Assembly (NCBI GenBank): GCA_011049425.1
Contig: DSBM01000141.1
Location: 62,969 to 126,968 of the forward strand
Direction of reading: 5' to 3'
DNA: 64,000 nucleotides
DNA from: Candidatus Aminicenantes bacterium
GTDB taxonomy: Bacteria > Acidobacteriota > Aminicenantia > UBA2199
Part shown: in pieces, positions 2,719 through 56,008 of the stretch
Numbering within the stretch: the stretch's first letter is position 1
Layout: every line of letters starts with the position of its first letter
Notes under the pieces: model-generated
Seen by the model: only the letters and a program-made list of their open reading frames with translations
Databases searched by the model: none
What the model was told of the DNA's origin: nothing
Translations under genes and position numbers: made by a program

Positions 2719-3531
2719 TTGGGAAACCATAGGAAACAAACCCTAAAACGCCATGACGGGAATCAGGAGAACAGCGTGATCATTACCATTGCCAACCAGA
2801 AAGGCGGGGTGGGGAAGACCACCACTGCAGTAAACCTCGCGGCTGCATTTGCCTTGGCCGGAAGACGCGCCCTACTCATTGATATGGACCCGCAGGCCAA
2901 CTCCACAGTGTCTTTTCTGGACTCGCGTGACATCGAGCTGAGCGTATTTCATTACCTGGAAGACATCGATACCGCGTTTGAGGATGTGGTTCAATCCACG
3001 TCAATTGAAAACCTTGATCTGCTTCCCGCTTCCATCTCCCTGGCCAAACTTGAATCCAAAATGATCGGCGAAATTGATGGCCATTTCCGCCTGAAAGATC
3101 GCCTGGATGCCGTGTTTCCTCGATATGACTATGTCTTGATCGATACGCCGCCAACCCTCGGATTGATCACCATCAACAGTTTAGTGGCGGCTACCCACTT
3201 ACTCATCCCCATTCAGGCATCCTATTTTGCTTTAGAAGGCACGGATGATCTGTTGGATACTTTTGAAAAAGTCCAAGCGCGCAGCAATCCGGAATTAGCC
3301 ATTCTGGGTGTCCTCATCACCCTGTATGATCGACGCATCGTAATCGCACGTGACAGCGCGGCACACATCCGGGGGATCTTTAAGGATCGCATGTTCAAAA
3401 CCGTGATTTCACGCAATGTGAGGTTGGAAGAGAGCCCGGCATTTAAAGAATCCATATTCACCCACGCTCCGAATTCTCGCGGGGCAGGGGAGTACAAAAA
3501 CCTGGCAAGGGAGATTATGAAACATGGCTAA
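2719..3531 (+). CDS. parA: Chromosome-partitioning ATPase ParA/Soj
   Basis: Deviant Walker A (NQKGGVGKTTTAVNLAAA) and ParA-family core. The true start may be the GTG at about 2776 (VIITIANQKGG). Confidence 0.85.
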   Translation: MGNHRKQTLKRHDGNQENSVIITIANQKGGVGKTTTAVNLAAAFALAGRRALLIDMDPQANSTVSFLDSRDIELSVFHYLEDIDTAFEDVVQSTSIENLDLLPASISLAKLESKMIGEIDGHFRLKDRLDAVFPRYDYVLIDTPPTLGLITINSLVAATHLLIPIQASYFALEGTDDLLDTFEKVQARSNPELAILGVLITLYDRRIVIARDSAAHIRGIFKDRMFKTVISRNVRLEESPAFKESIFTHAPNSRGAGEYKNLAREIMKHG

Positions 3532-4387
3532 AAAGATCGGCTTGCCTGAATCCATCAAGTTGAAACATGATCATCACCTGGTAGACGAGCTTTCAAGTCG
3601 CAGCCGCACCTGCGTGATCCGCTATATTTCGCTGGAACGGATCGTGGCCGGCGCGCAGCAGCCGCGCAGTGATTTTGGTGACATCGAAGCGCTGGCGGCT
3701 TCGATCCGCGAAAAAGGCGTTATTGAACCCATAATTTTGCGTTCAAGGGATGGTCGATTCGAAATCATTGCCGGAGAGAGACGCTACCGCGCGGCCAGAT
3801 TGGCCGGTTTAACTGAAATTCCCGGAATTGAATACGACATTCAGGACAATGAAGCTTTGGAACTGTCCATTGTGGAAAATGCCCAGAGAAAAGACTTGAA
3901 CCCGTTTGAATTGGCATTTTCTCTAAAGTCCCTGAACGAGATATATGGATACACCCACGAAGAAATCGCCAAAAAAGTCGGCAACTCAAGGGTATCCATC
4001 ACGGAAATGATACGCCTCAGTGACATGCCGCCCCAGGTAGTCAGCCGTTGCCAGGAAATGGGTATCGAGTCTAAGTCATTCCTGCTTGAACTGGTAAAGC
4101 TGGAAAATATCGAGCAGATGATGCATGTACTGGATCAATATGCAAAATCGCCGTTTTCCAGGGATGCCGTCAAGGAAATCCGCCGGCGCAAAACGCCGGA
4201 GGGCAAAGAAAAGGGCCGGCCCGCTGCCGCAAAAGCGCAGAGTTTCAAGTTTGTGGCGCCCGACAAATCCCTGAAAATCGATTTCCGTTTTCGCGAAGGT
4301 GAGATCAACCGCGAGCGCCTTATTGACGTATTGCAGACACTGCTTGAGGATCTGCAGAGCGGGCGGATCAAGGGCATCAATACCTGA
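3524..4387 (+). CDS. parB: Chromosome-partitioning protein ParB/Spo0J
   Basis: ParB box (IIAGERRYRAARLAGLTEIP) and HTH. 8-nt overlap with parA. Confidence 0.85.
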   Translation: MAKKIGLPESIKLKHDHHLVDELSSRSRTCVIRYISLERIVAGAQQPRSDFGDIEALAASIREKGVIEPIILRSRDGRFEIIAGERRYRAARLAGLTEIPGIEYDIQDNEALELSIVENAQRKDLNPFELAFSLKSLNEIYGYTHEEIAKKVGNSRVSITEMIRLSDMPPQVVSRCQEMGIESKSFLLELVKLENIEQMMHVLDQYAKSPFSRDAVKEIRRRKTPEGKEKGRPAAAKAQSFKFVAPDKSLKIDFRFREGEINRERLIDVLQTLLEDLQSGRIKGINT

Positions 4388-4651: not shown

Positions 4652-5113
4652 CTGGCGATATGCAGCCGCGACCCAATTGGGGATTTCCCGTTTCGGCCTG
4701 AATTGAATCTTTTGGTTCTGTTACGTTGGTGATTGGAGTGAAGCTTCAGAACACCCAGAGGGCATAAATACCCGTAGGACATAAAGCATAAGCGAACGCA
4801 AGCGTAGGTTCCTGGGACCCATTTTTAAATTAGAATAACGTCCGCCCACACAGAATGGAAGAAAACCAATCTTTTCAACTATAGATCCCTTGCGTTTCCG
4901 TGTCGGTAATCCCGAATTGACGGTAAACGGGAATTTTTACTGCGCCGTTACCGGCAGAACTGTCTCAGCAGAAATAGTGTTTTGTTTTTCGGAAAACCTA
5001 TATAAGGGATATTCAGCTAGAAATATGCCTTATTTGGCTGATTGTACAGTTGCTGCGCTGGACTTACTGAGGCGGTTTTTGGTTGGGCGCGAACATTTTA
5101 AATTTTGCTTGCG

Positions 5114-5989
5114 CTATGTGTTTCGGCCCAATGACTCGCTCAAATTCTTTAGTCCCTGGTCCATTTTTTCCTGGAAAATCCGCCAGGTGGATGCCTGGTT
5201 GCACTTGCCGCTGCGGATGTTGACATCGAATACGGAAAAATCCATGACCAGGTTGTTGCGGGCCACCTCAAAACGCTGGTACATTCCGGTCAGGAAGCGT
5301 TCAATAATGGGTTTGCGCTTCATGCCGATCACCGAATTGAGAGATCCGGTCATGCCCACATCGGTTTGATACCCGGTGCCGTTGCTGAGAATGCGCACGT
5401 CACTGGTTTGCACGTGGGTATGGGTGCCCACCATGACACTCACCCGCCCATCCAGAAAAAAGCCCATGGCTTGTTTTTCCGCCGTGGCTTCGGCGTGAAA
5501 ATCCACGAAAACGCATTTCTCGGGGTCTTCTTTCAAGAGGCGATCCACAATCAGAAAGGGATTGTCGACCACGGGTTCCATGAAAACCCGCCCCTGCAGG
5601 TTGATTACGCGCAGTTTGGCTCCATTTGCCAGATTCGCCTTATAGCAGCCATTTCCGGGAACACTTGGTGGATAGTTCATCGGCCTCAGGATGCGGGGAT
5701 TTTCGCGCAGCAATTCAACGGCTTCACGCTTGTCCCATACGTGGTTTCCCGAAGTGATCAGGTCCACGCCGGCCTGGAACAACTCTACGGCTGTTTTGGG
5801 AATGATACCTAAGCCTCCGGCACTGTTTTCGCCGTTGGCAATCACAAAATCAGGGCGAATGCGATAACGCACTTTGGGCAGCACATCAGCCAGGAATCTC
5901 CTGGCCCCGCGTCCCACCACATCCCCGATAAACACCACGCGCAGGTCTGGGGATTCGCTACTTGTATTTTTCCTATTTGGCATATTCAA
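5114..5989 (-). CDS. ymdB: YmdB-family metallophosphoesterase (2',3'-cyclic-nucleotide phosphodiesterase, TIGR00282-like)
   Basis: VVFIGDVVGRGAR...GNHVWD...HAEATAEK...GTHTHVQTSD calcineurin-like motifs. Lies downstream of rny, as in Bacillus. Confidence 0.85.
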   Translation of the reverse strand: MNMPNRKNTSSESPDLRVVFIGDVVGRGARRFLADVLPKVRYRIRPDFVIANGENSAGGLGIIPKTAVELFQAGVDLITSGNHVWDKREAVELLRENPRILRPMNYPPSVPGNGCYKANLANGAKLRVINLQGRVFMEPVVDNPFLIVDRLLKEDPEKCVFVDFHAEATAEKQAMGFFLDGRVSVMVGTHTHVQTSDVRILSNGTGYQTDVGMTGSLNSVIGMKRKPIIERFLTGMYQRFEVARNNLVMDFSVFDVNIRSGKCNQASTWRIFQEKMDQGLKNLSESLGRNT

Positions 5990-7535
5990 CTGCTCGGACT
6001 TCTCGTATCACCGTGACCTTGATCTGGCCGGGGTATTCCAATTCCTCCTGGATGCGTTTGGCAATATCTTTGGACACGAAAAACACCTTGTTATCGTTCA
6101 TTTCATTGGAATCCACGATAACCCGGACTTCCCGGCCGGCCCGCAGCGCGTAGGCTTTTTCCACACCCTCAAAACCGGCGCACACTTCCTCCAGTTTTTC
6201 CAGGCGCTTGATATAGGTTTCAAAGATCTCTCTCCTGGCGCCTGGCCGGGCTGCGGACATGGTATCCGCCGCCTGGATCAACACACCCTCAACCGCGGTA
6301 AAATCCACGTCCATGTGGTGAGAAGCAATGGCCTCCTGCACCTGTTTGGACTCGCCGAACTTGCGGGCCAGGTCGACCGACAACTGGGTATGGGTGCCTT
6401 CAGTTTCGCGGTCAATGGATTTGCCCACATCGTGCAGCAGTCCGGCGCGGCGGGCGACGTTTACATTCGCCCCCAGTTCCCGTGCCATAAACGCCGCGAT
6501 CAGGGCCACCTCTTGGGAATGCTGCAGGGCATTCTGGCCATATGAAGTACGGAACTTCAGTTTCCCCAGGTAGTAGTACAACTCCGGGTTTATGTCCTTG
6601 ATTCCCAATTCCACGACGGTCTGCTCGCCGACTTCGCGGAGAAAGTCATCGAATCCCGTTTCGATCTTTTCCACGATCTCTTCCACGCGCGCGGGATGAA
6701 TCCTGCCGTCCTGGATCAGTGTTTCCAAAGCCCGCTTGGCAATTTCGCGACGAATGGGGTCGAAAGAAGAAACGATAATCGCTTCCGGGGTATCATCTAC
6801 AATGAAGTCAACACCGGTCGCGTTTTCCAGGGCGCGGATATTGCGCCCTTCCCTACCGATAATCCGCCCTTTCATCTCGTCATTGGGAAGATCGATTACC
6901 GCTACGGACGAAGAAACCACGTGCTCGGAAGCCAGCCGCTGGATGGCCGTGCCGATAATGTCCTTGGCCATGACCTGGCTTTTTTCTTTTAAATCCTCTT
7001 CAATGGCCCGCAATCGCTGAGCGGATTCCATGCGGGCTTCGCTTTCGTATTGGCTGACGATCAACTCTTTGGCTTCCTGAACGGTCAAGCCGGAAATAGT
7101 TTCCAACTTTTTGCGCTGTTCTTCAAGCGTGTTTTCCAATTCGCGGCGCGCCAGGTCCAGTTGTTGCCCACGCTCCCCCAGTTGGACTTCAACTTTTTTC
7201 AGGTCTTTTTCCTTGTTTTCCAGGTTGATGTAGCGATGGTCCAGATTCTCTTCCTTCTGTACCAGGCGACGCTCCGTTTCATTGATTTTGTTTATTTTCT
7301 GGCTCTGTTTGCGATTGTATTCGTTTTTCCAGTTGATAAACTCTTCTTTCAGTTCAAGATTGGTTTTCGTGCGCTGGGCGGCCAACTCCTGGTCAGCCTG
7401 ACGTTTCCATTCCTGTTGCTGCTGCTCAAGCCTCCGGTATTGTCCGGAAAACAGCTTCTTGCGCAACAGGAAAACCACTACAGCGGTCAAAGCGATTCCG
7501 CCCAGGAACGGAACCATATATGTAAGTATCGACAT
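5973..7535 (-). CDS. rny: Ribonuclease Y (N-terminal TM, coiled coil, KH and HD domains)
   Basis: N-terminal TM helix, long coiled coil, KH (GREGRNIRALENATGVDFIVDD) and HD domain (HSQEVALIAAF...LLHDVGK). Confidence 0.9.
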   Translation of the reverse strand: MSILTYMVPFLGGIALTAVVVFLLRKKLFSGQYRRLEQQQQEWKRQADQELAAQRTKTNLELKEEFINWKNEYNRKQSQKINKINETERRLVQKEENLDHRYINLENKEKDLKKVEVQLGERGQQLDLARRELENTLEEQRKKLETISGLTVQEAKELIVSQYESEARMESAQRLRAIEEDLKEKSQVMAKDIIGTAIQRLASEHVVSSSVAVIDLPNDEMKGRIIGREGRNIRALENATGVDFIVDDTPEAIIVSSFDPIRREIAKRALETLIQDGRIHPARVEEIVEKIETGFDDFLREVGEQTVVELGIKDINPELYYYLGKLKFRTSYGQNALQHSQEVALIAAFMARELGANVNVARRAGLLHDVGKSIDRETEGTHTQLSVDLARKFGESKQVQEAIASHHMDVDFTAVEGVLIQAADTMSAARPGARREIFETYIKRLEKLEEVCAGFEGVEKAYALRAGREVRVIVDSNEMNDNKVFFVSKDIAKRIQEELEYPGQIKVTVIREVRAVEYAK

Positions 7536-49620: not shown

Positions 49621-52236
49621 TCATTTTTTGATATCGTCTTTCCATGCGGATCGCAGCAAAGCGTTAAACAGGAGTTTGTAGGTTCCATGACTCTGCGCAC
49701 GGCTCTGGGGACGGAATCCAAACAGGACAATCCTGCCTTTGCCGTACTCTAAATCCACGAGGGCGGCTTTGCGGGCAAGGTGAGATTCTCCCAGCAGCCA
49801 CCCGCTCTCCAGAATTTCCCTTTCGGGATACCGGGCCACCACTCTCCGCTGCCAGGGTTGACGGGGAATCCAGGTCGAAAAGGCCGGACTGTCTGAAAAC
49901 ATCACTGCCGCTTTTTTTTGCATTCCCAGACCCAGGGGATGCTCGATATCCACTTCGACTCCAAGAATGGACATGGGACAGAAAAACTTGTCGCGCTTCA
50001 GCCCTTTTAAAATATTGCGGACCGGGGGTTCAAACTCCTTTAGAACCAACTCTGAAGAGCGGTTCAGGCAAACCAAGTGACCTCCCTGGCGCACGAATTT
50101 TTTTAAAGCCTCTATGCCCTGTTTTTTGATTCCGCCCTGGTATTCGGGCGGGAGAGGAGAATAATACCGTTTCCAGGGCGAATCAGGGGCCGGCTCGCCT
50201 TTCACAATCAAATCTTTGCTTTCCGACGGCAATACAATGACATCGAAATCAGTATTCAACCCGTTCTTTCCCTTCGGGCTTGAGATCTGCTGGTTGTGCA
50301 GGGTCTGGAAACGAATGCCGGCATCGTCCAGCATGAAGCGGGTCCAACCTTCGTCCATGCTGGCATTCCAGGACTGGTACACGCCGATACGAGGAAAAAC
50401 CAATTGCACCATTCCGGCGCGAAGCTCACCATCGCCAAAGCCGCAAGAAAAGCCCAGTGCCTGCTGCAACTTATCGATTTCCCGACGACTTTTTGGATTC
50501 AGGCGCACCAGGAAATCACCGCATTCAGCCGATTCCGGGCCCTCATTGCCTCCCGGTTCGGTTTTTCGCCATACCGTCACTCCGCCGTCCAGTAAAGCAA
50601 AAACCGCTTGATGAGCTGCATTTTCGCCGCCTTTCAACACAGCCCACACCTTCTCTTCCGGAATATCAACCCGGGGATCCGACACATCGGAAATCATCTT
50701 CATCTCGGCTGCAAATGGACCTTCCACCGGAATGCACTCCACTCCCATCTGCAGAGGCAAAGTCCACCCCGCATTGTCGTATGGGGGAATGGGCGGACCG
50801 CCCGGATACTGGCGCATGTCTGGATAACGCTGGCGCTCCAGCAGAGCCTGGGCATAAGGTTGATAAGGCTGATTCATGTTGATCACCCAGGTTCCCGCCG
50901 GCACCATTCGTTGCCCCGATTGCGAATCCGCAGTGATTTGATGAACTTCGACGCCTCCGAGCTGCAGGATGCGGAGCATGCGCCGTGCGGCTGGAGCATC
51001 GTGCTGAATATTCGGAATCAGGAACGCGGTGACTCCATTTTCTCTTTGGCCGTCGACCGCGTCTTTGCACATGCGGTAGAAATTCATTAAAAACGATTGC
51101 CGATACAAAGCGGCGGCTTCGATCAAACCGAATGACAACGTGAGCTCGTAATCCACGATATCCCGCAAACGCCACCACCCACCCCTCCATGGATGGGGGA
51201 ACTGCATGCTCTTTTGATAATAACTGTCACTGATCTCACCCGGCTCAACGTAAACCGGGGTCGCGATCTTCACGGAAGCCATTTCACTCAGGATGCCGAT
51301 CGCATTGTGAAGCCAGGACGTATCATCGCAAGCACCGATCCACCATCCGGTAAAGCTGCGACCGTGTACCACTCCGGCCCGGTTCTCTTCTTCCAGGCGA
51401 TATGCCATATGGCTGCCGCAAAGGGCGATCCCCCGCCATACCAGCGGATGGACCGGTCCGGTGGGGGGGTCTTTAAAGGGAGGTATGAACAGGCGCGCCC
51501 CCGAAGAGCCCATCTGGTGTTCATCGATATGGATCTGGGGAATCCAGTCGTGGAAAAGAACCTGCATTAGCGCCCGTGTTTCCGGCAGGTTGCCCATGAA
51601 CCAGTCTCGGTTATTGTCATGTCCCGCATAGTGATGATATAGCCAGGGCATGCGTCCGCCGTCGTAAAGGGTTCCCCGATACTTTCTGTACCAGTCCGTT
51701 ACCATCTGAACACCGTCTGGGTTGATGGTGGGAACCAGCAACACGATTACTTTGTCCAATACGTCCTGACCGGGAAAAGGGGTTTTTCCCGTTGTCAGCC
51801 TCCAGGCGAGTTCCATGCTCATCTGTGACGCCCCGATCTCGGTGGCGTGCAGGCTGCAGGTGATCAGCAGGATGGTACGACCGGTTTGAGCCAGTTTCGA
51901 CGCATCCTCCCTGGTTAAGTCCCGGGCATCCCGCAGTTTCCGGACAATTTCACGATAGTGGTCCATGTTTTTCAGGTTGGCCGGCGATGAAACAACGGCC
52001 ATGACCAGTGGACGCCCCTGAACGGTTTTTCCGATTTGGAGCAATTGCAGGCGTTCCGACTCTTTGTCCAGAATGCGAAAGTACTCCAGAATCTGAGCGT
52101 AATCCGCAAGTTTTCCGTCCTGTCCGACCTCATGACCCAAAAAATCGTTTGGTGAAGTTTGGGCATTCAAAGTCGGCACAAACGCTAACAGGCATAACGA
52201 AAACAACAGGCAAGCCGGAAGGTGTTTCATCTGCAT
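49621..52236 (-). CDS. Secreted M14-family zinc carboxypeptidase-like protein (about 870 aa, long C-terminal extension)
   Basis: Signal peptide (MQMKHLPACLLFSLCLLAFVPTLNAQ). HxxE (SLHATE), NPDG and a later His-containing segment as in M14. Start at the ATG at 52236 with a GGGAG RBS. Confidence 0.55.
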   Translation of the reverse strand: MQMKHLPACLLFSLCLLAFVPTLNAQTSPNDFLGHEVGQDGKLADYAQILEYFRILDKESERLQLLQIGKTVQGRPLVMAVVSSPANLKNMDHYREIVRKLRDARDLTREDASKLAQTGRTILLITCSLHATEIGASQMSMELAWRLTTGKTPFPGQDVLDKVIVLLVPTINPDGVQMVTDWYRKYRGTLYDGGRMPWLYHHYAGHDNNRDWFMGNLPETRALMQVLFHDWIPQIHIDEHQMGSSGARLFIPPFKDPPTGPVHPLVWRGIALCGSHMAYRLEEENRAGVVHGRSFTGWWIGACDDTSWLHNAIGILSEMASVKIATPVYVEPGEISDSYYQKSMQFPHPWRGGWWRLRDIVDYELTLSFGLIEAAALYRQSFLMNFYRMCKDAVDGQRENGVTAFLIPNIQHDAPAARRMLRILQLGGVEVHQITADSQSGQRMVPAGTWVINMNQPYQPYAQALLERQRYPDMRQYPGGPPIPPYDNAGWTLPLQMGVECIPVEGPFAAEMKMISDVSDPRVDIPEEKVWAVLKGGENAAHQAVFALLDGGVTVWRKTEPGGNEGPESAECGDFLVRLNPKSRREIDKLQQALGFSCGFGDGELRAGMVQLVFPRIGVYQSWNASMDEGWTRFMLDDAGIRFQTLHNQQISSPKGKNGLNTDFDVIVLPSESKDLIVKGEPAPDSPWKRYYSPLPPEYQGGIKKQGIEALKKFVRQGGHLVCLNRSSELVLKEFEPPVRNILKGLKRDKFFCPMSILGVEVDIEHPLGLGMQKKAAVMFSDSPAFSTWIPRQPWQRRVVARYPEREILESGWLLGESHLARKAALVDLEYGKGRIVLFGFRPQSRAQSHGTYKLLFNALLRSAWKDDIKK

Positions 52237-52420
52237 GAGTTCTCCCAGCGGGAACCAGCTGTGAAAAGTCCCGCAATTCCAAATTGTAAGGGAAAAAGAC
52301 GAGGCTTGGCAATAGCGATTCATGGCGTGCCTTCAACCAGGTGAGAACAAACAGTTGGAATGGAACGTATTTTCCAGGTGGGAAACCACAGATCACAATG
52401 TCTTTCCAGGAGGTGCCGAT

Positions 52421-52741
52421 ATGATTGTTACCACCACTCCCTCCATTGAGGGCAAAAAAATCCGCGCTTACCTTGGCCTGGTTACAGGAGAGGCCATTAT
52501 GGGAGCCAATCTGTTCAAAGACCTGTTCGCGGGAATCCGCGACCTGGTGGGAGGCCGTTCAGCCGCTTACGAACGGGAACTGGGCCGGGCACGCCAGGTG
52601 GCGTTAAAAGAACTCGAGGAGCGCGCCGCCGCCCTGGGAGCGGACTCGATAGTGGGTGTGGATATCGACTACGAAGTGTTGGGCCAGAACAACGGCATGC
52701 TGATGGTGTCGGTCAGCGGAACCGCGGTCAAAACCGCATAA
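52421..52741 (+). CDS. YbjQ/UPF0145-family protein
   Basis: 106 aa, [14 protein letters not shown]...GANLFKD...[14 protein letters not shown] signature. Confidence 0.8.
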
Positions 52742-52749
52742 GACTTTTT

Positions 52750-52892
52750 GGTTCTCTTCCATTTTGTGTGGGTTTTGTGGGTCTGGAGTTTATTATTCTT
52801 CGAAAAAAGAGAAAGACTGCAGTAGAGTACCCTCTCCACAACCCCTCGCCAATCATTAATGCGGGCTTACCCACACTAAATGGAAGAGAACC
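52750..52892. repeat. Inverted repeat with 24-bp arms (1 mismatch) around a 95-bp spacer, flanked by T/A runs on both strands
   Basis: GGTTCTCTTCCATTTTGTGTGGGT (52750-52773) pairs with ACCCACACTAAATGGAAGAGAACC (52869-52892). CTTTTT precedes and CTTTTTT follows. Lies between convergent ybjQ and a small minus-strand ORF. Confidence 0.5.
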
Positions 52893-52898
52893 ACTTTT

Positions 52899-53102
52899 TT
52901 AAACCGCGTTGCCGCTATCAAGGGCCGAGGCCGCCATGTAAATTGATCCGGCCGCCGCCGCGACCACTACGGTCACGGCAACCATCGCTGACAACCATCC
53001 CGAAATAAAGTTTGGCGGCAAAAGTTCCGCCATGATTCGCAATACTCCGGGAATCAAGATGGCTCCGCACCACAGAATTCTTTTTTTTTCACAAGGCTTC
53101 AT
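52899..53102 (-). CDS. Hypothetical small membrane protein (about 67 aa, two hydrophobic segments)
   Basis: ORF with an AGGAGG-like RBS before the ATG at 53102, and a hydrophobic C-terminal half (WLSAMVAVTVVVAAAAGSIYMAASAL). No recognisable family. Confidence 0.2.
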   Translation of the reverse strand: MKPCEKKRILWCGAILIPGVLRIMAELLPPNFISGWLSAMVAVTVVVAAAAGSIYMAASALDSGNAV

Positions 53103-53152
53103 TTCCCCTCCTCTCTGCATCGGGATTAAGCCCGAGGCTTCCCCTCCTCAAT

Positions 53153-54295
53153 ATGCCGGACGCCGGGCGTTTTGTCAATTCACAAAGGTTCCTGCCGTGT
53201 GTGGTGGACGCTGGGTTTCAAATCGGCTACAATCCATTTGAGTCGCAAATGGGTCCCGATAACCAACAACATATCCAATTGCCAAGCCGGCTGGTTCTGG
53301 AAGACTACAGCGAAATCCAGAATCAATTGCGCAAACTGAACCCCGGGCGGCCGGTGTCGCTGGATTTCTCCCGGGTTGAACAGATGGATTCCACCGGTGC
53401 GGCCATAATCAGTCACTTGACGCGTACGCGGCCCGACATTCGCATGCATGGACTCTCCCCCCGTCTGAAACGCATGCTGGATGTGTTTACCGGCAGCGAT
53501 GCTCCCGCTCCCGACTCCGGAGAACCGGCAACCGACCTTCCCCAGCCAAACTGGTACGATTCAGCAAAGCAATTCCTGGTACTCATGGCCGATGAATTTG
53601 CTCATATCTGGCATTACCTTTGGCGGCGACGCGGAGTGTACCCCGGTGAGATCCGCCAGCAACTCTACCATATGGGGTATGGCTCCTATTGGATTGTCAG
53701 CATCATCACTTTCCTGGTGGGCGTCACCATCGCCCTGACCACGGCCAAGCAACTCAATGATTTCGGGGCGAACATATTTCTGGCGGACGTGGTGGGATTC
53801 GGCATGATTCGTGAACTGGTTCCGCTTATGACCGGCATCATTCTGGCCGGAAAAGTAGGCGCGTCCATCACCGCCGAGATCGCCTCCATGAAAGTGCTGG
53901 AGGAAGTGGACGCCCTGCACACCATGGGCCTGAACCCTGAGAAATTCCTCATGGTTCCGCGGCTCGTCGCCATCGGCCTGGCGGTTCCCCTCCTTGTCGC
54001 CGTGGCGAATATCGTGGGAATTTTCGGCGGCATGCTGGTGGGAAAATTCTATTCCGGAATCTCTTTCAAAGCCTTCTACGACGAGATGCTGACCATTGTG
54101 GAACTGGAAGACCTGCTGATCGGTCTGGGCAAAACCATGGTTTTCGGCTGGGTCATCGTGATCAGCAGTGGGTTTAAAGGATTCTCCGTATCCCGCGGCG
54201 CGCTGGGGGTGGGAATCGCAACCACGGAATCGGTCGTGTTGTCCATTTCCCTGATTATCGTGCTGGACAGCATATTCGCACTTTTGCTGTATTGA
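53153..54295 (+). CDS. mlaE: MlaE/Ttg2B-family ABC permease with N-terminal STAS (MlaB-like) domain fusion
   Basis: N-terminal STAS-like segment (LDFSRVEQMDSTGAAII), then the MlaE permease core (five TM helices, conserved ...LVPLMTGIILAGKVGASITAEI...). The real start may be the ATG near 53252. Confidence 0.8.
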   Translation: MPDAGRFVNSQRFLPCVVDAGFQIGYNPFESQMGPDNQQHIQLPSRLVLEDYSEIQNQLRKLNPGRPVSLDFSRVEQMDSTGAAIISHLTRTRPDIRMHGLSPRLKRMLDVFTGSDAPAPDSGEPATDLPQPNWYDSAKQFLVLMADEFAHIWHYLWRRRGVYPGEIRQQLYHMGYGSYWIVSIITFLVGVTIALTTAKQLNDFGANIFLADVVGFGMIRELVPLMTGIILAGKVGASITAEIASMKVLEEVDALHTMGLNPEKFLMVPRLVAIGLAVPLLVAVANIVGIFGGMLVGKFYSGISFKAFYDEMLTIVELEDLLIGLGKTMVFGWVIVISSGFKGFSVSRGALGVGIATTESVVLSISLIIVLDSIFALLLY

Positions 54296-54296
54296 A

Positions 54297-55064
54297 ATGA
54301 GACAGGAAACCATTGTTCAAACCCGCGACCTGACGATTGGCTACCACGGAACCGCGGTGGTTTCACACATCGACCTAACGGTAAAACGCGGCCGCATCGT
54401 TGTCGTGCTGGGAAAAAGCGGTTGCGGCAAATCCACGTTGCTGAAAACCATGATCGGCCTGCTGCCCCCCATAGCCGGTTCAGTTGAATTCGACGGGCGC
54501 CCGGTCGATTTCAGCTCAGAACAGTCCCTGCAGCGGCTTTTTGGCCGCATCGGTGTATTATATCAGAGCGGTGCCCTGCTGAATTCCCTCAACCTGTACG
54601 AAAACATTGCATTGCCCATCACCATGCATCATCCCGCCATCAGCCACGAGATCCGCAAAGAGATGGTAACCAATCGCTTGCACCAGGTGGGTTTGGCCCC
54701 GGAGTTGGCGCGTTATCCCGCCGAACTCAGTGGGGGGATGCGAAAGCGGGCCGCCCTGGCGCGCGCCATGATCCTGGATCCGGAAATCATTTTTTGTGAT
54801 GAACCGTCAGCCGGCCTTGATCCCATTACCGCCGCCGGCCTGGATGAATTGATGCTCAACCTGAAAGAGTTGCTGGGAATCACTTTCGTGGTCGTCACCC
54901 ACGAACTGCGATCGATTGAACGCATCGCTGATGATGTGTTGGTGATGCAGCAAAGCAGAATCCGCTTCAACGGGTCTTTTCAAGAGTTGAAAAATACATC
55001 TGATCCATTTGTACGGGCGTTCTTTCTCTGGGGCAATGCGAATAACAAGGGAATCTCACCATGA
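54297..55064 (+). CDS. mlaF: ABC transporter ATP-binding protein, MlaF-like
   Basis: Walker A (GKSGCGKST), ABC signature (LSGGMRKR), Walker B (ILDPEIIFCDEPSAGLD). Confidence 0.85.
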   Translation: MRQETIVQTRDLTIGYHGTAVVSHIDLTVKRGRIVVVLGKSGCGKSTLLKTMIGLLPPIAGSVEFDGRPVDFSSEQSLQRLFGRIGVLYQSGALLNSLNLYENIALPITMHHPAISHEIRKEMVTNRLHQVGLAPELARYPAELSGGMRKRAALARAMILDPEIIFCDEPSAGLDPITAAGLDELMLNLKELLGITFVVVTHELRSIERIADDVLVMQQSRIRFNGSFQELKNTSDPFVRAFFLWGNANNKGISP

Positions 55065-56008
55065 TCACAAAGGAACAAAAAAACCGCTTGCACATATTTC
55101 TGGTTGTTTCCTCGCTGCTTTTGATTGCGGCCCTGGGCGCATTTATCATTCCCCTGGTTCAACACCGTGGAGATCTGTATTCGATAAACTTTACCGGAAT
55201 TTCCGTAGGCGGACTGGAAAAAAGTTCCACGGTAAAATATCAGGGCGTACGTGTCGGCAACACGGAAGAGATCAACGTCAACCCGGATGACCTCAAATCC
55301 ATCCTGGTTACCGTGCGCATTCAGCGCCAATTCAAAATCAAGTCCGACATGAGAGCCAAACTCATGTTTATCGGCATTACCGGGCTGAAGTACATTGAAC
55401 TCTATGGAGGCAGCAACGAAGCCCCCTGTATCGCCCCCGGGGGCAGCATTCCCACTGAACCGGGCATGGGGGAAAAAGCCGAAGACATCGTGCAAAACAT
55501 TGATGAGGCGGTGAAACGCATCAACGTATTACTCAGTCCCCGCAATCAGCAGAATATCGAGGAATTTGTCGAGCATCTCAACAAAACCGCCACGGTATTG
55601 AGCGAAGTGTTTAACATTCGCCGCGTCAACCTCGAGGAATTGCTGATTCAACTGGACAGCGCTTCCGCAAATCTCGATCGTTCCACAAAGGAATTAAACC
55701 TTTTCATGGCCAACCTCAACCGCGCCCTGCCCGCGGATCGCCTGGATCGAATCGGCCGGGATTTGGAAAAATCACTTAACAGTCTTTCCCAACGCTTCTC
55801 GGCAAATGAATTCGGCCGCTTAATCCGCAATACCGATACCGGAGTTCAACGCATCAGCAACGCCATTGTGGAGTTGAAACACGAAATCGGCATGGCTGTT
55901 GAAATGATCCACGATGCCTTTGCCGACCTCAGATCGTTTACGCGCCGGTTGGACGAAGATCCCAATATCCTGATCCGCAAAAGCAAACGCCGGAGGTCCA
56001 AACCATGA
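55061..56008 (+). CDS. mlaD: MCE-domain substrate-binding protein, MlaD-like
   Basis: N-terminal TM anchor, single MCE domain, C-terminal coiled-coil extension. Confidence 0.8.
   Translation: MITKEQKNRLHIFLVVSSLLLIAALGAFIIPLVQHRGDLYSINFTGISVGGLEKSSTVKYQGVRVGNTEEINVNPDDLKSILVTVRIQRQFKIKSDMRAKLMFIGITGLKYIELYGGSNEAPCIAPGGSIPTEPGMGEKAEDIVQNIDEAVKRINVLLSPRNQQNIEEFVEHLNKTATVLSEVFNIRRVNLEELLIQLDSASANLDRSTKELNLFMANLNRALPADRLDRIGRDLEKSLNSLSQRFSANEFGRLIRNTDTGVQRISNAIVELKHEIGMAVEMIHDAFADLRSFTRRLDEDPNILIRKSKRRRSKP

Follow-up and report, generated by a model that had tools for sequence, protein, structure and literature searches.

A 143-bp inverted repeat between convergent genes of an Aminicenantes genome is very probably an ISL3-type MITE

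Between a ybjQ-family gene and a 67-aa ORF that converge upon each other, the window (the whole 64-kb stretch of DNA analysed here) contains an inverted repeat at 52750-52892, with 24-nt arms that pair at 23 of 24 positions on either side of a 95-nt interior (Table 1). The first-pass annotation had described both the repeat, as 24-nt arms with one mismatch around some 95 bp, and its convergent intergenic location; a repeat search and shuffled sequences bear out the former, and the positions of the two genes the latter. The repeat search itself returned arms of 25 nt (52749-52773 and 52869-52893; 96% complementary, 95 nt spacing), and the true ends of the element are those of the 24-nt arms. 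One hundred dinucleotide shuffles of the window gave no chance match to the 24-nt arm. The G+C content of the 143-bp element is 45%, versus 54% for the window; the ORFs that overlap it are chance ones of only 44-56 aa, and no transposase gene lies inside it. With its surroundings, the filled site reads ...CCGCATAA GACTTTTT (143-bp element) ACTTTTTT AAACCGCG... RNA folding, which the annotation had proposed for both strands, predicts a strong hairpin on each: -60.2 kcal/mol (z = -6.4) on the plus strand and -60.6 kcal/mol (z = -6.1) on the minus strand.

Table 1. Features of the 143-bp element, its two neighbours and the second family copy, in window coordinates
Feature	Position	Strand	Remarks
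ybjQ-family gene, stop codon 8 nt before the element	52421-52741	+	Pfam YbjQ_1 1.6e-38
Left target-site duplication copy	52742-52749		GACTTTTT; ACTTTTT common to the right copy
Left terminal inverted repeat	52750-52773	+	GGTTCTCTTCCATTTTGTGTGGGT; 0 mismatches versus the family consensus
Interior, non-coding, 95 nt, 44% G+C	52774-52868		two parts match the ends of 329-345-bp MITEs
Right terminal inverted repeat	52869-52892	-	1 mismatch versus the left arm, at variable position 16
Right target-site duplication copy	52893-52900		ACTTTTTT; final two bases within the small-ORF stop codon
67-aa small membrane ORF, stop codon overlapping the right duplication	52899-53102	-	conserved in syntenic relatives
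Second family copy (copy A), 154 bp	4714-4867	-	perfect 8-bp duplication AATCTTTT at 4706-4713 / 4868-4875

The small ORF is hydrophobic, carries GAGGAGG 4 nt upstream of its ATG and matches no Pfam family, just as it had first been described (a hydrophobic ORF with a ribosome-binding site and no recognisable family). A word-indexed protein search with it returned only itself (hypothetical protein ENN40_10115, Candidatus Aminicenantes bacterium), and the orphan status that this search suggested was wrong: tblastn on syntenic loci and an index-free search gave relatives, the latter, over 1.84 billion representative proteins, yielding two clear ones (E <= 1e-10) and one weak partial match. Conservation in relatives, on which the annotation had made the small ORF depend, is found in the syntenic loci L146, L126 and L124/L125, where the ORF occupies the same position (L146 2501-2704, 67%; L126 2628-2834, 49%; L124 2644-2835 and L125, 41%) and keeps the motifs PG(V/L)LR and YMAA. 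The small ORF is probably a real membrane protein gene of a narrow lineage, and it is unrelated to the MITE. Beyond it, the window encodes an MlaE permease (53153/53249-54295, plus strand) with an N-terminal STAS domain (Pfam STAS_2 1.5e-09, MlaE 8.9e-69). This STAS-MlaE fusion is kept in the relatives retrieved; in E. coli, MlaB, the STAS partner, is a protein of its own.

The annotation had left three options for the repeat (a bidirectional terminator, an sRNA or a small MITE-like element) and had proposed a look for other copies of the arms. When GGTTYTCTTCCATTNNGTGTGGG was searched against one genome per species, in 8-kb tiles, the 24-nt end was present in at least 120 tiles, and the window itself holds 2 family copies in its 64 kb; these findings confirm the MITE reading. 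Among the matches listed, the majority of tiles come from Candidatus Aminicenantes MAGs, and several tiles per MAG are common (for example, 10 in JADHWO01 and 7 in JAPKZH01). The remaining tiles are labelled, as given, Auribacterota, Tritonobacter, 'PVC group', 'Eubacteriales', 'Clostridia', Thermotogaceae, Desulfatiglandaceae or Syntrophotalea. A near-invariant 24-nt end is seen in MAGs labelled Aminicenantes, Auribacterota, PVC group, Eubacteriales/Clostridia, Thermotogaceae and Desulfobacterota; labels from several phyla point either to extensive horizontal transfer or to MAGs whose labels or binning are unreliable.

With mismatches allowed, 77 inverted arm pairs (among the matches listed) enclose 71-563 bp, and two long elements measure 1203 and 1330 bp. 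Over about 150 arms, positions 1-23 are conserved at 85-100%, except for position 16 at 68% (among the matches listed), which is the site of the one mismatch between the arms of the window element; the 24-nt family signature is GGTTCTCTTCCATTNNGTGTGGG. Members of the family strongly favour intergenic sites: 11 of 76 fall inside an ORF of at least 150 codons, versus 73% of random placements (among the matches listed). Integron attC sites and CRISPR repeats were also considered and were dropped, the copies being inverted, spaced at 71-563 bp and bordered by duplicated flanks. The genome of the window is represented in two further contigs, one of which (L121, assembled elsewhere) is identical across the region. 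The other, a Logan contig from an independent assembly (L122), ends 27 nt into the left arm (L122 3322-3354), as expected for a repeat, and this implies further copies in the window's genome. At a locus in another MAG (L014), just downstream of an HlyD-like gene, two 164-bp copies (3040-3203 and 4937-5100) lie on the two sides of a gene for a TolC-like outer-membrane protein. We rejected a reading of their 2-kb arm spacing as one autonomous or composite element, because these are two separate 164-bp MITEs that flank the TolC-like gene.

To measure the duplication at the borders of the family, we took GG...CC as the element boundaries in 75 elements (among the matches listed). The two flanks agree at a rate of about 0.8 per position over exactly 8 positions, and of 0.05-0.11 immediately beyond them. 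In 33 of the 75 elements, all 8 bp are the same on both sides, in 47 at least 7 of the 8 agree, and the duplicated target sequences are 79% A+T (all among the matches listed). ISL3 elements, in the ISfinder description of the family, make an 8-bp A+T-rich duplication and have inverted ends beginning with GG. The sharp 8-bp signal also agrees with the 8-nt direct repeats reported for an ISL3-type Microcystis MITE (PMC11448079). At 52750-52892, the duplication copies GACTTTTT and ACTTTTTT match at 5 of 8 positions in register and have ACTTTTT in common after a 1-nt shift. The simplest explanation for this imperfect register would be a slip in the T-run, with a change at the edge as the alternative; one or the other must be assumed.

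The T-runs at 52745-52749 and 52895-52900 are both T on the plus strand and so form a direct repeat, not an A-run/T-run arrangement; they are the duplicated target. Because the T-runs are direct and not inverted, a U-tract follows the hairpin on the plus strand only. The annotation had seen T-runs that face incoming transcription on both sides, which holds for the plus strand; on the minus strand, there is an A-run in that place.

The same ends as those of the MITEs also delimit a complete insertion sequence (IS). This 1330-bp (1.33-kb) element lies at L109 6344-7673, in the complete 3.18-Mb Aminicenantes chromosome OY969762.1, and is bordered on either side by ATAAATAT. Its 420-aa ORF encodes a full ISL3 transposase, with the Pfam domains DDE_Tnp_ISL3 (5e-72), Zn_ribbon_ISL3 and HTH_Tnp_ISL3 (8.8e-17 and 5.2e-12) and a score of 348 bits against NCBIfam transpos_ISL3 (NF033550; cutoff 180). 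The combination of DDE, zinc-ribbon and HTH domains, an 8-bp A+T-rich duplication and GG ends is that of the ISL3 family; the L109 element, with the ends that it shares, is the autonomous partner of the MITEs. Transposase fragments adjoin arms in seven more loci (L066, L001, L073, L020, L056, L084 and L021). No ISL3 transposase gene lies within the 64-kb window, and a current transposase source for the element is putative. Outside the arms, the MITE interiors have no homology to the L109 IS, the one complete IS examined.

Comparison with relatives bears on whether the element was inserted at this site. The closest, L146, was found by the index-free protein search with the small ORF (P0002, 67% identity); it has the same gene order and about 82% DNA identity, aligning at 81.5% to window positions 50300-52749 and at 81.9% to 52895-55500, and the two alignments abut with a 4-nt overlap. 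It reads ...CCGCATAG AACTTTTT TTA CGCC..., with one ACTTTTTT and no arm anywhere, and 8 nt separate the stop codons of its ybjQ and small ORF, with no element between them. Because the element is absent, the target is present in a single copy and the gene order is the same, L146 represents an empty site. We take the window and L146 to be the filled and the empty version of one site, a comparison that rests on a relative about 82% identical. More distant syntenic relatives (M14 peptidase, ybjQ, small ORF, mlaE), retrieved via MlaE, have no arm anywhere; their two stop codons are separated by 17 nt in L126 and by 22 nt in L124. The exact empty-site pattern ACCGCATAAGACTTTTT(N)AAACCGCGTTGCC had 0 matches in the metagenome collection, and thus gave no same-species empty site; the junction predicted for an empty site in the same population is CATAAGACTTTTTTAAACC.

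The second family copy in the window, the partly decayed copy A, was recovered as a third arm match, at 4844-4867, when 3 mismatches were allowed. Its orientation is opposite to that of its 329-bp relatives, about 21 nt have been lost inside one arm, and it lies in the 727 bp that separate parB from a convergent ymdB-like gene. The genes on one side of this spacer are parA and parB (2719-4387), followed on the opposite strand by those for a ymdB-like phosphoesterase and RNase Y (5114-7535). The duplicated target of copy A, AATCTTTT, resembles that of the first copy, ACTTTTTT. Clustering by interior places both window copies in one subfamily with the 329-345-bp MITEs of other MAGs (L018, L040, L051, L080, L033). 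Of these longer MITEs, the element at 52750-52892, copy B, retains about 88 nt at the left end and about 54 nt at the right, and copy A retains a different internal segment, at 89% identity. Because both align to separate parts of the 329-345-bp MITEs, copies A and B are different deletion derivatives of one subfamily, despite interiors that at first seemed unrelated. Copy A folds no better than shuffles (z = -0.16), and the hairpin is therefore not a property of the family.

We conclude, with a probability of about 0.93, that 52750-52892 is a 143-bp non-coding, non-autonomous ISL3-type MITE inserted between convergent genes. The element is shorter than 600 bp and without a transposase gene, it has terminal inverted repeats that are common to an autonomous IS, it belongs to an intergenic, multi-copy family with a duplication of fixed length (8 bp in the family; 8/8 in copy A), and its site is filled in the window and empty at the orthologous locus. 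The third of the options first offered, a small MITE-like element, was the correct one, on the strength of the family copies, the 8-bp duplications, the shared ends and the empty site.

These features are consistent with a simple route of insertion. An ISL3-family DDE transposase would recognise the 24-bp ends as terminal inverted repeats; supplied by a full-length relative elsewhere, it would bind both of them, a mobilisation in trans that we infer from known ISL3/DDE behaviour. The element entered the A+T-rich 8-bp target ACTTTTTT, which filled the 7-8-nt gap between the stop codons of ybjQ and the small ORF. A staggered 8-bp cut, likewise expected from known DDE/ISL3 behaviour, followed by repair would have duplicated this target and produced the two T-runs.

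An element of this type is of an ordinary kind, from a family that seems previously undescribed, and its host phylum is poorly studied. Its main value lies in annotation: it accounts for the odd 143-bp hairpin and for the second repeat of the window, and the family explains assembly breaks at such sites in uncultured Aminicenantes genomes, with no bearing on any open biological question. With the 24-nt signature and the 8-bp duplication rule, this abundant ISL3/MITE family can be masked or followed in MAGs.

One alternative concerns only how the 143-bp form arose: the insertion could have been of a longer element, either a full IS or a 329-bp MITE, whose interior was afterwards lost at this site. 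We regard this as unlikely, though not far-fetched. The alignment of copy B to both ends of the 329-345-bp MITEs, with the middle missing, argues for such a loss, as does the continuum of family lengths (71-563 bp among the matches listed), but the near-perfect arms (23/24) suggest a young and intact element. No identical 143-bp copy was found elsewhere that would decide between loss in place and transposition as a 143-bp unit; the MITE family is the same in either case.

A second proposal, which builds on the MITE origin without displacing it, holds that the hairpin and its CUUUUUU tail have been co-opted as a terminator or 3'-end stabiliser for ybjQ and as an insulator. The 24-25-bp stem on the plus strand (-60 kcal/mol, z = -6.4) runs directly into C and six U, and before insertion the stop codons stood 7-8 nt apart with no hairpin. 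There are also documented cases of MITE hairpins that affect the fate of mRNA, namely Correia elements with RNase III and the terminator-like SPRITE (PMC10969869). However, a 95-nt loop is far from that of a canonical intrinsic terminator, and a terminator/promoter scan calls no terminator at the element; the U-tract is merely the duplicated target; a T-rich tail occurs in only 22 of 74 family members (among the matches listed); and the relatives manage without any such structure. We therefore find the proposal doubtful. As a by-product and not a family property, the predicted 24-bp stem and CUUUUUU at the end of a ybjQ transcript could stop or stabilise this mRNA, and the long duplex could be a substrate for RNase III, by analogy with the Correia-element substrates. 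It is quite improbable that the MITE has been kept as the sole terminator or insulator between ybjQ and the small ORF, within a family recently and widely transferred that supplies Aminicenantes with 3'-end structures.

We give almost no credence to the idea that the repeat arose at this site as a bidirectional intrinsic terminator serving both convergent genes, one of the functions that the annotation had suggested. The convergent location, the very stable hairpin on both strands and the T-runs on both sides do invite it, but the T-runs are the direct target-site duplication, such that the minus-strand transcript has an A-run after the hairpin; T-rich tails, and hence U-tracts, on both strands occur in 0 of 74 family members (among the matches listed), and the scan calls nothing here. 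Against the short G+C-rich stem, 3-8-nt loop and U-tract of an intrinsic terminator, the element has a loop of 95 nt and a U-tract on the plus strand only. The same arms occur with duplicated flanks in many other places and genomes, a multi-copy distribution that already contradicts an origin in place, and the orthologous site is empty in a relative.

A small RNA gene or structured cis-regulatory RNA, for which the strong predicted structure and the intergenic location would speak, is scarcely credible: there is no Rfam match above noise, the interior varies among copies with the arms alone conserved, copy A folds like its shuffles, the element is missing from the orthologous loci, and no promoter-like site is called within it. 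The Rfam scan that the annotation had proposed gave, for the region at a permissive E-value, best scores of 23.2 bits (Phe_leader, threshold 55) and 18 (MIR2646, threshold 245), which are noise; at gathering thresholds, six loci with longer family members or IS had 0 matches. Such hairpins should not be read as terminators or sRNAs.

The MITE at 52750-52892 has counterparts among known systems. The ISL3-type MITE of Microcystis aeruginosa PCC 7806 (187 nt) is likewise non-coding and shorter than 500 bp, with 8-nt direct repeats and a stem-loop RNA prediction; its inverted ends, GGCTCTTCG, begin with GG(C/T)TCT, as do those of the co-resident ISL3 transposase elements (PMC11448079). It differs in host (Cyanobacteria versus Aminicenantes) and in its conserved end, reported as 9 nt (PMC11448079) versus the 24-nt arm here, and we see no sequence similarity past the first few bases. 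The L109 element resembles the Acidithiobacillus insertion sequences ISAtc1, ISAtc2 and ISTfe1, the nearest named elements in the plasmid collection, in its ISL3 domains, length of about 1.3 kb, GG ends and 8-bp A+T-rich duplication, but its transposase is only about 44% identical to theirs, and the window element, unlike them, has no transposase gene. The Correia elements of Neisseria duplicate TA, and we know of no parent transposase identified for them; in contrast, the family described here has an 8-bp duplication and an identified ISL3 parent. Correia elements are nevertheless similar in being short, multi-copy and intergenic, with inverted ends of about 26 bp (PMC10969869), and within neighbouring mRNAs these ends fold into long RNA hairpins that are cut by RNase III (review PMC10969869). 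MITEs of the ERIC, RUP and Chunjie types differ from the present family in sequence, parent IS family and host, and share with it an intergenic preference, size variants that arise by internal deletion, A+T-rich targets and direct repeats that decay with age (PMC10969869).
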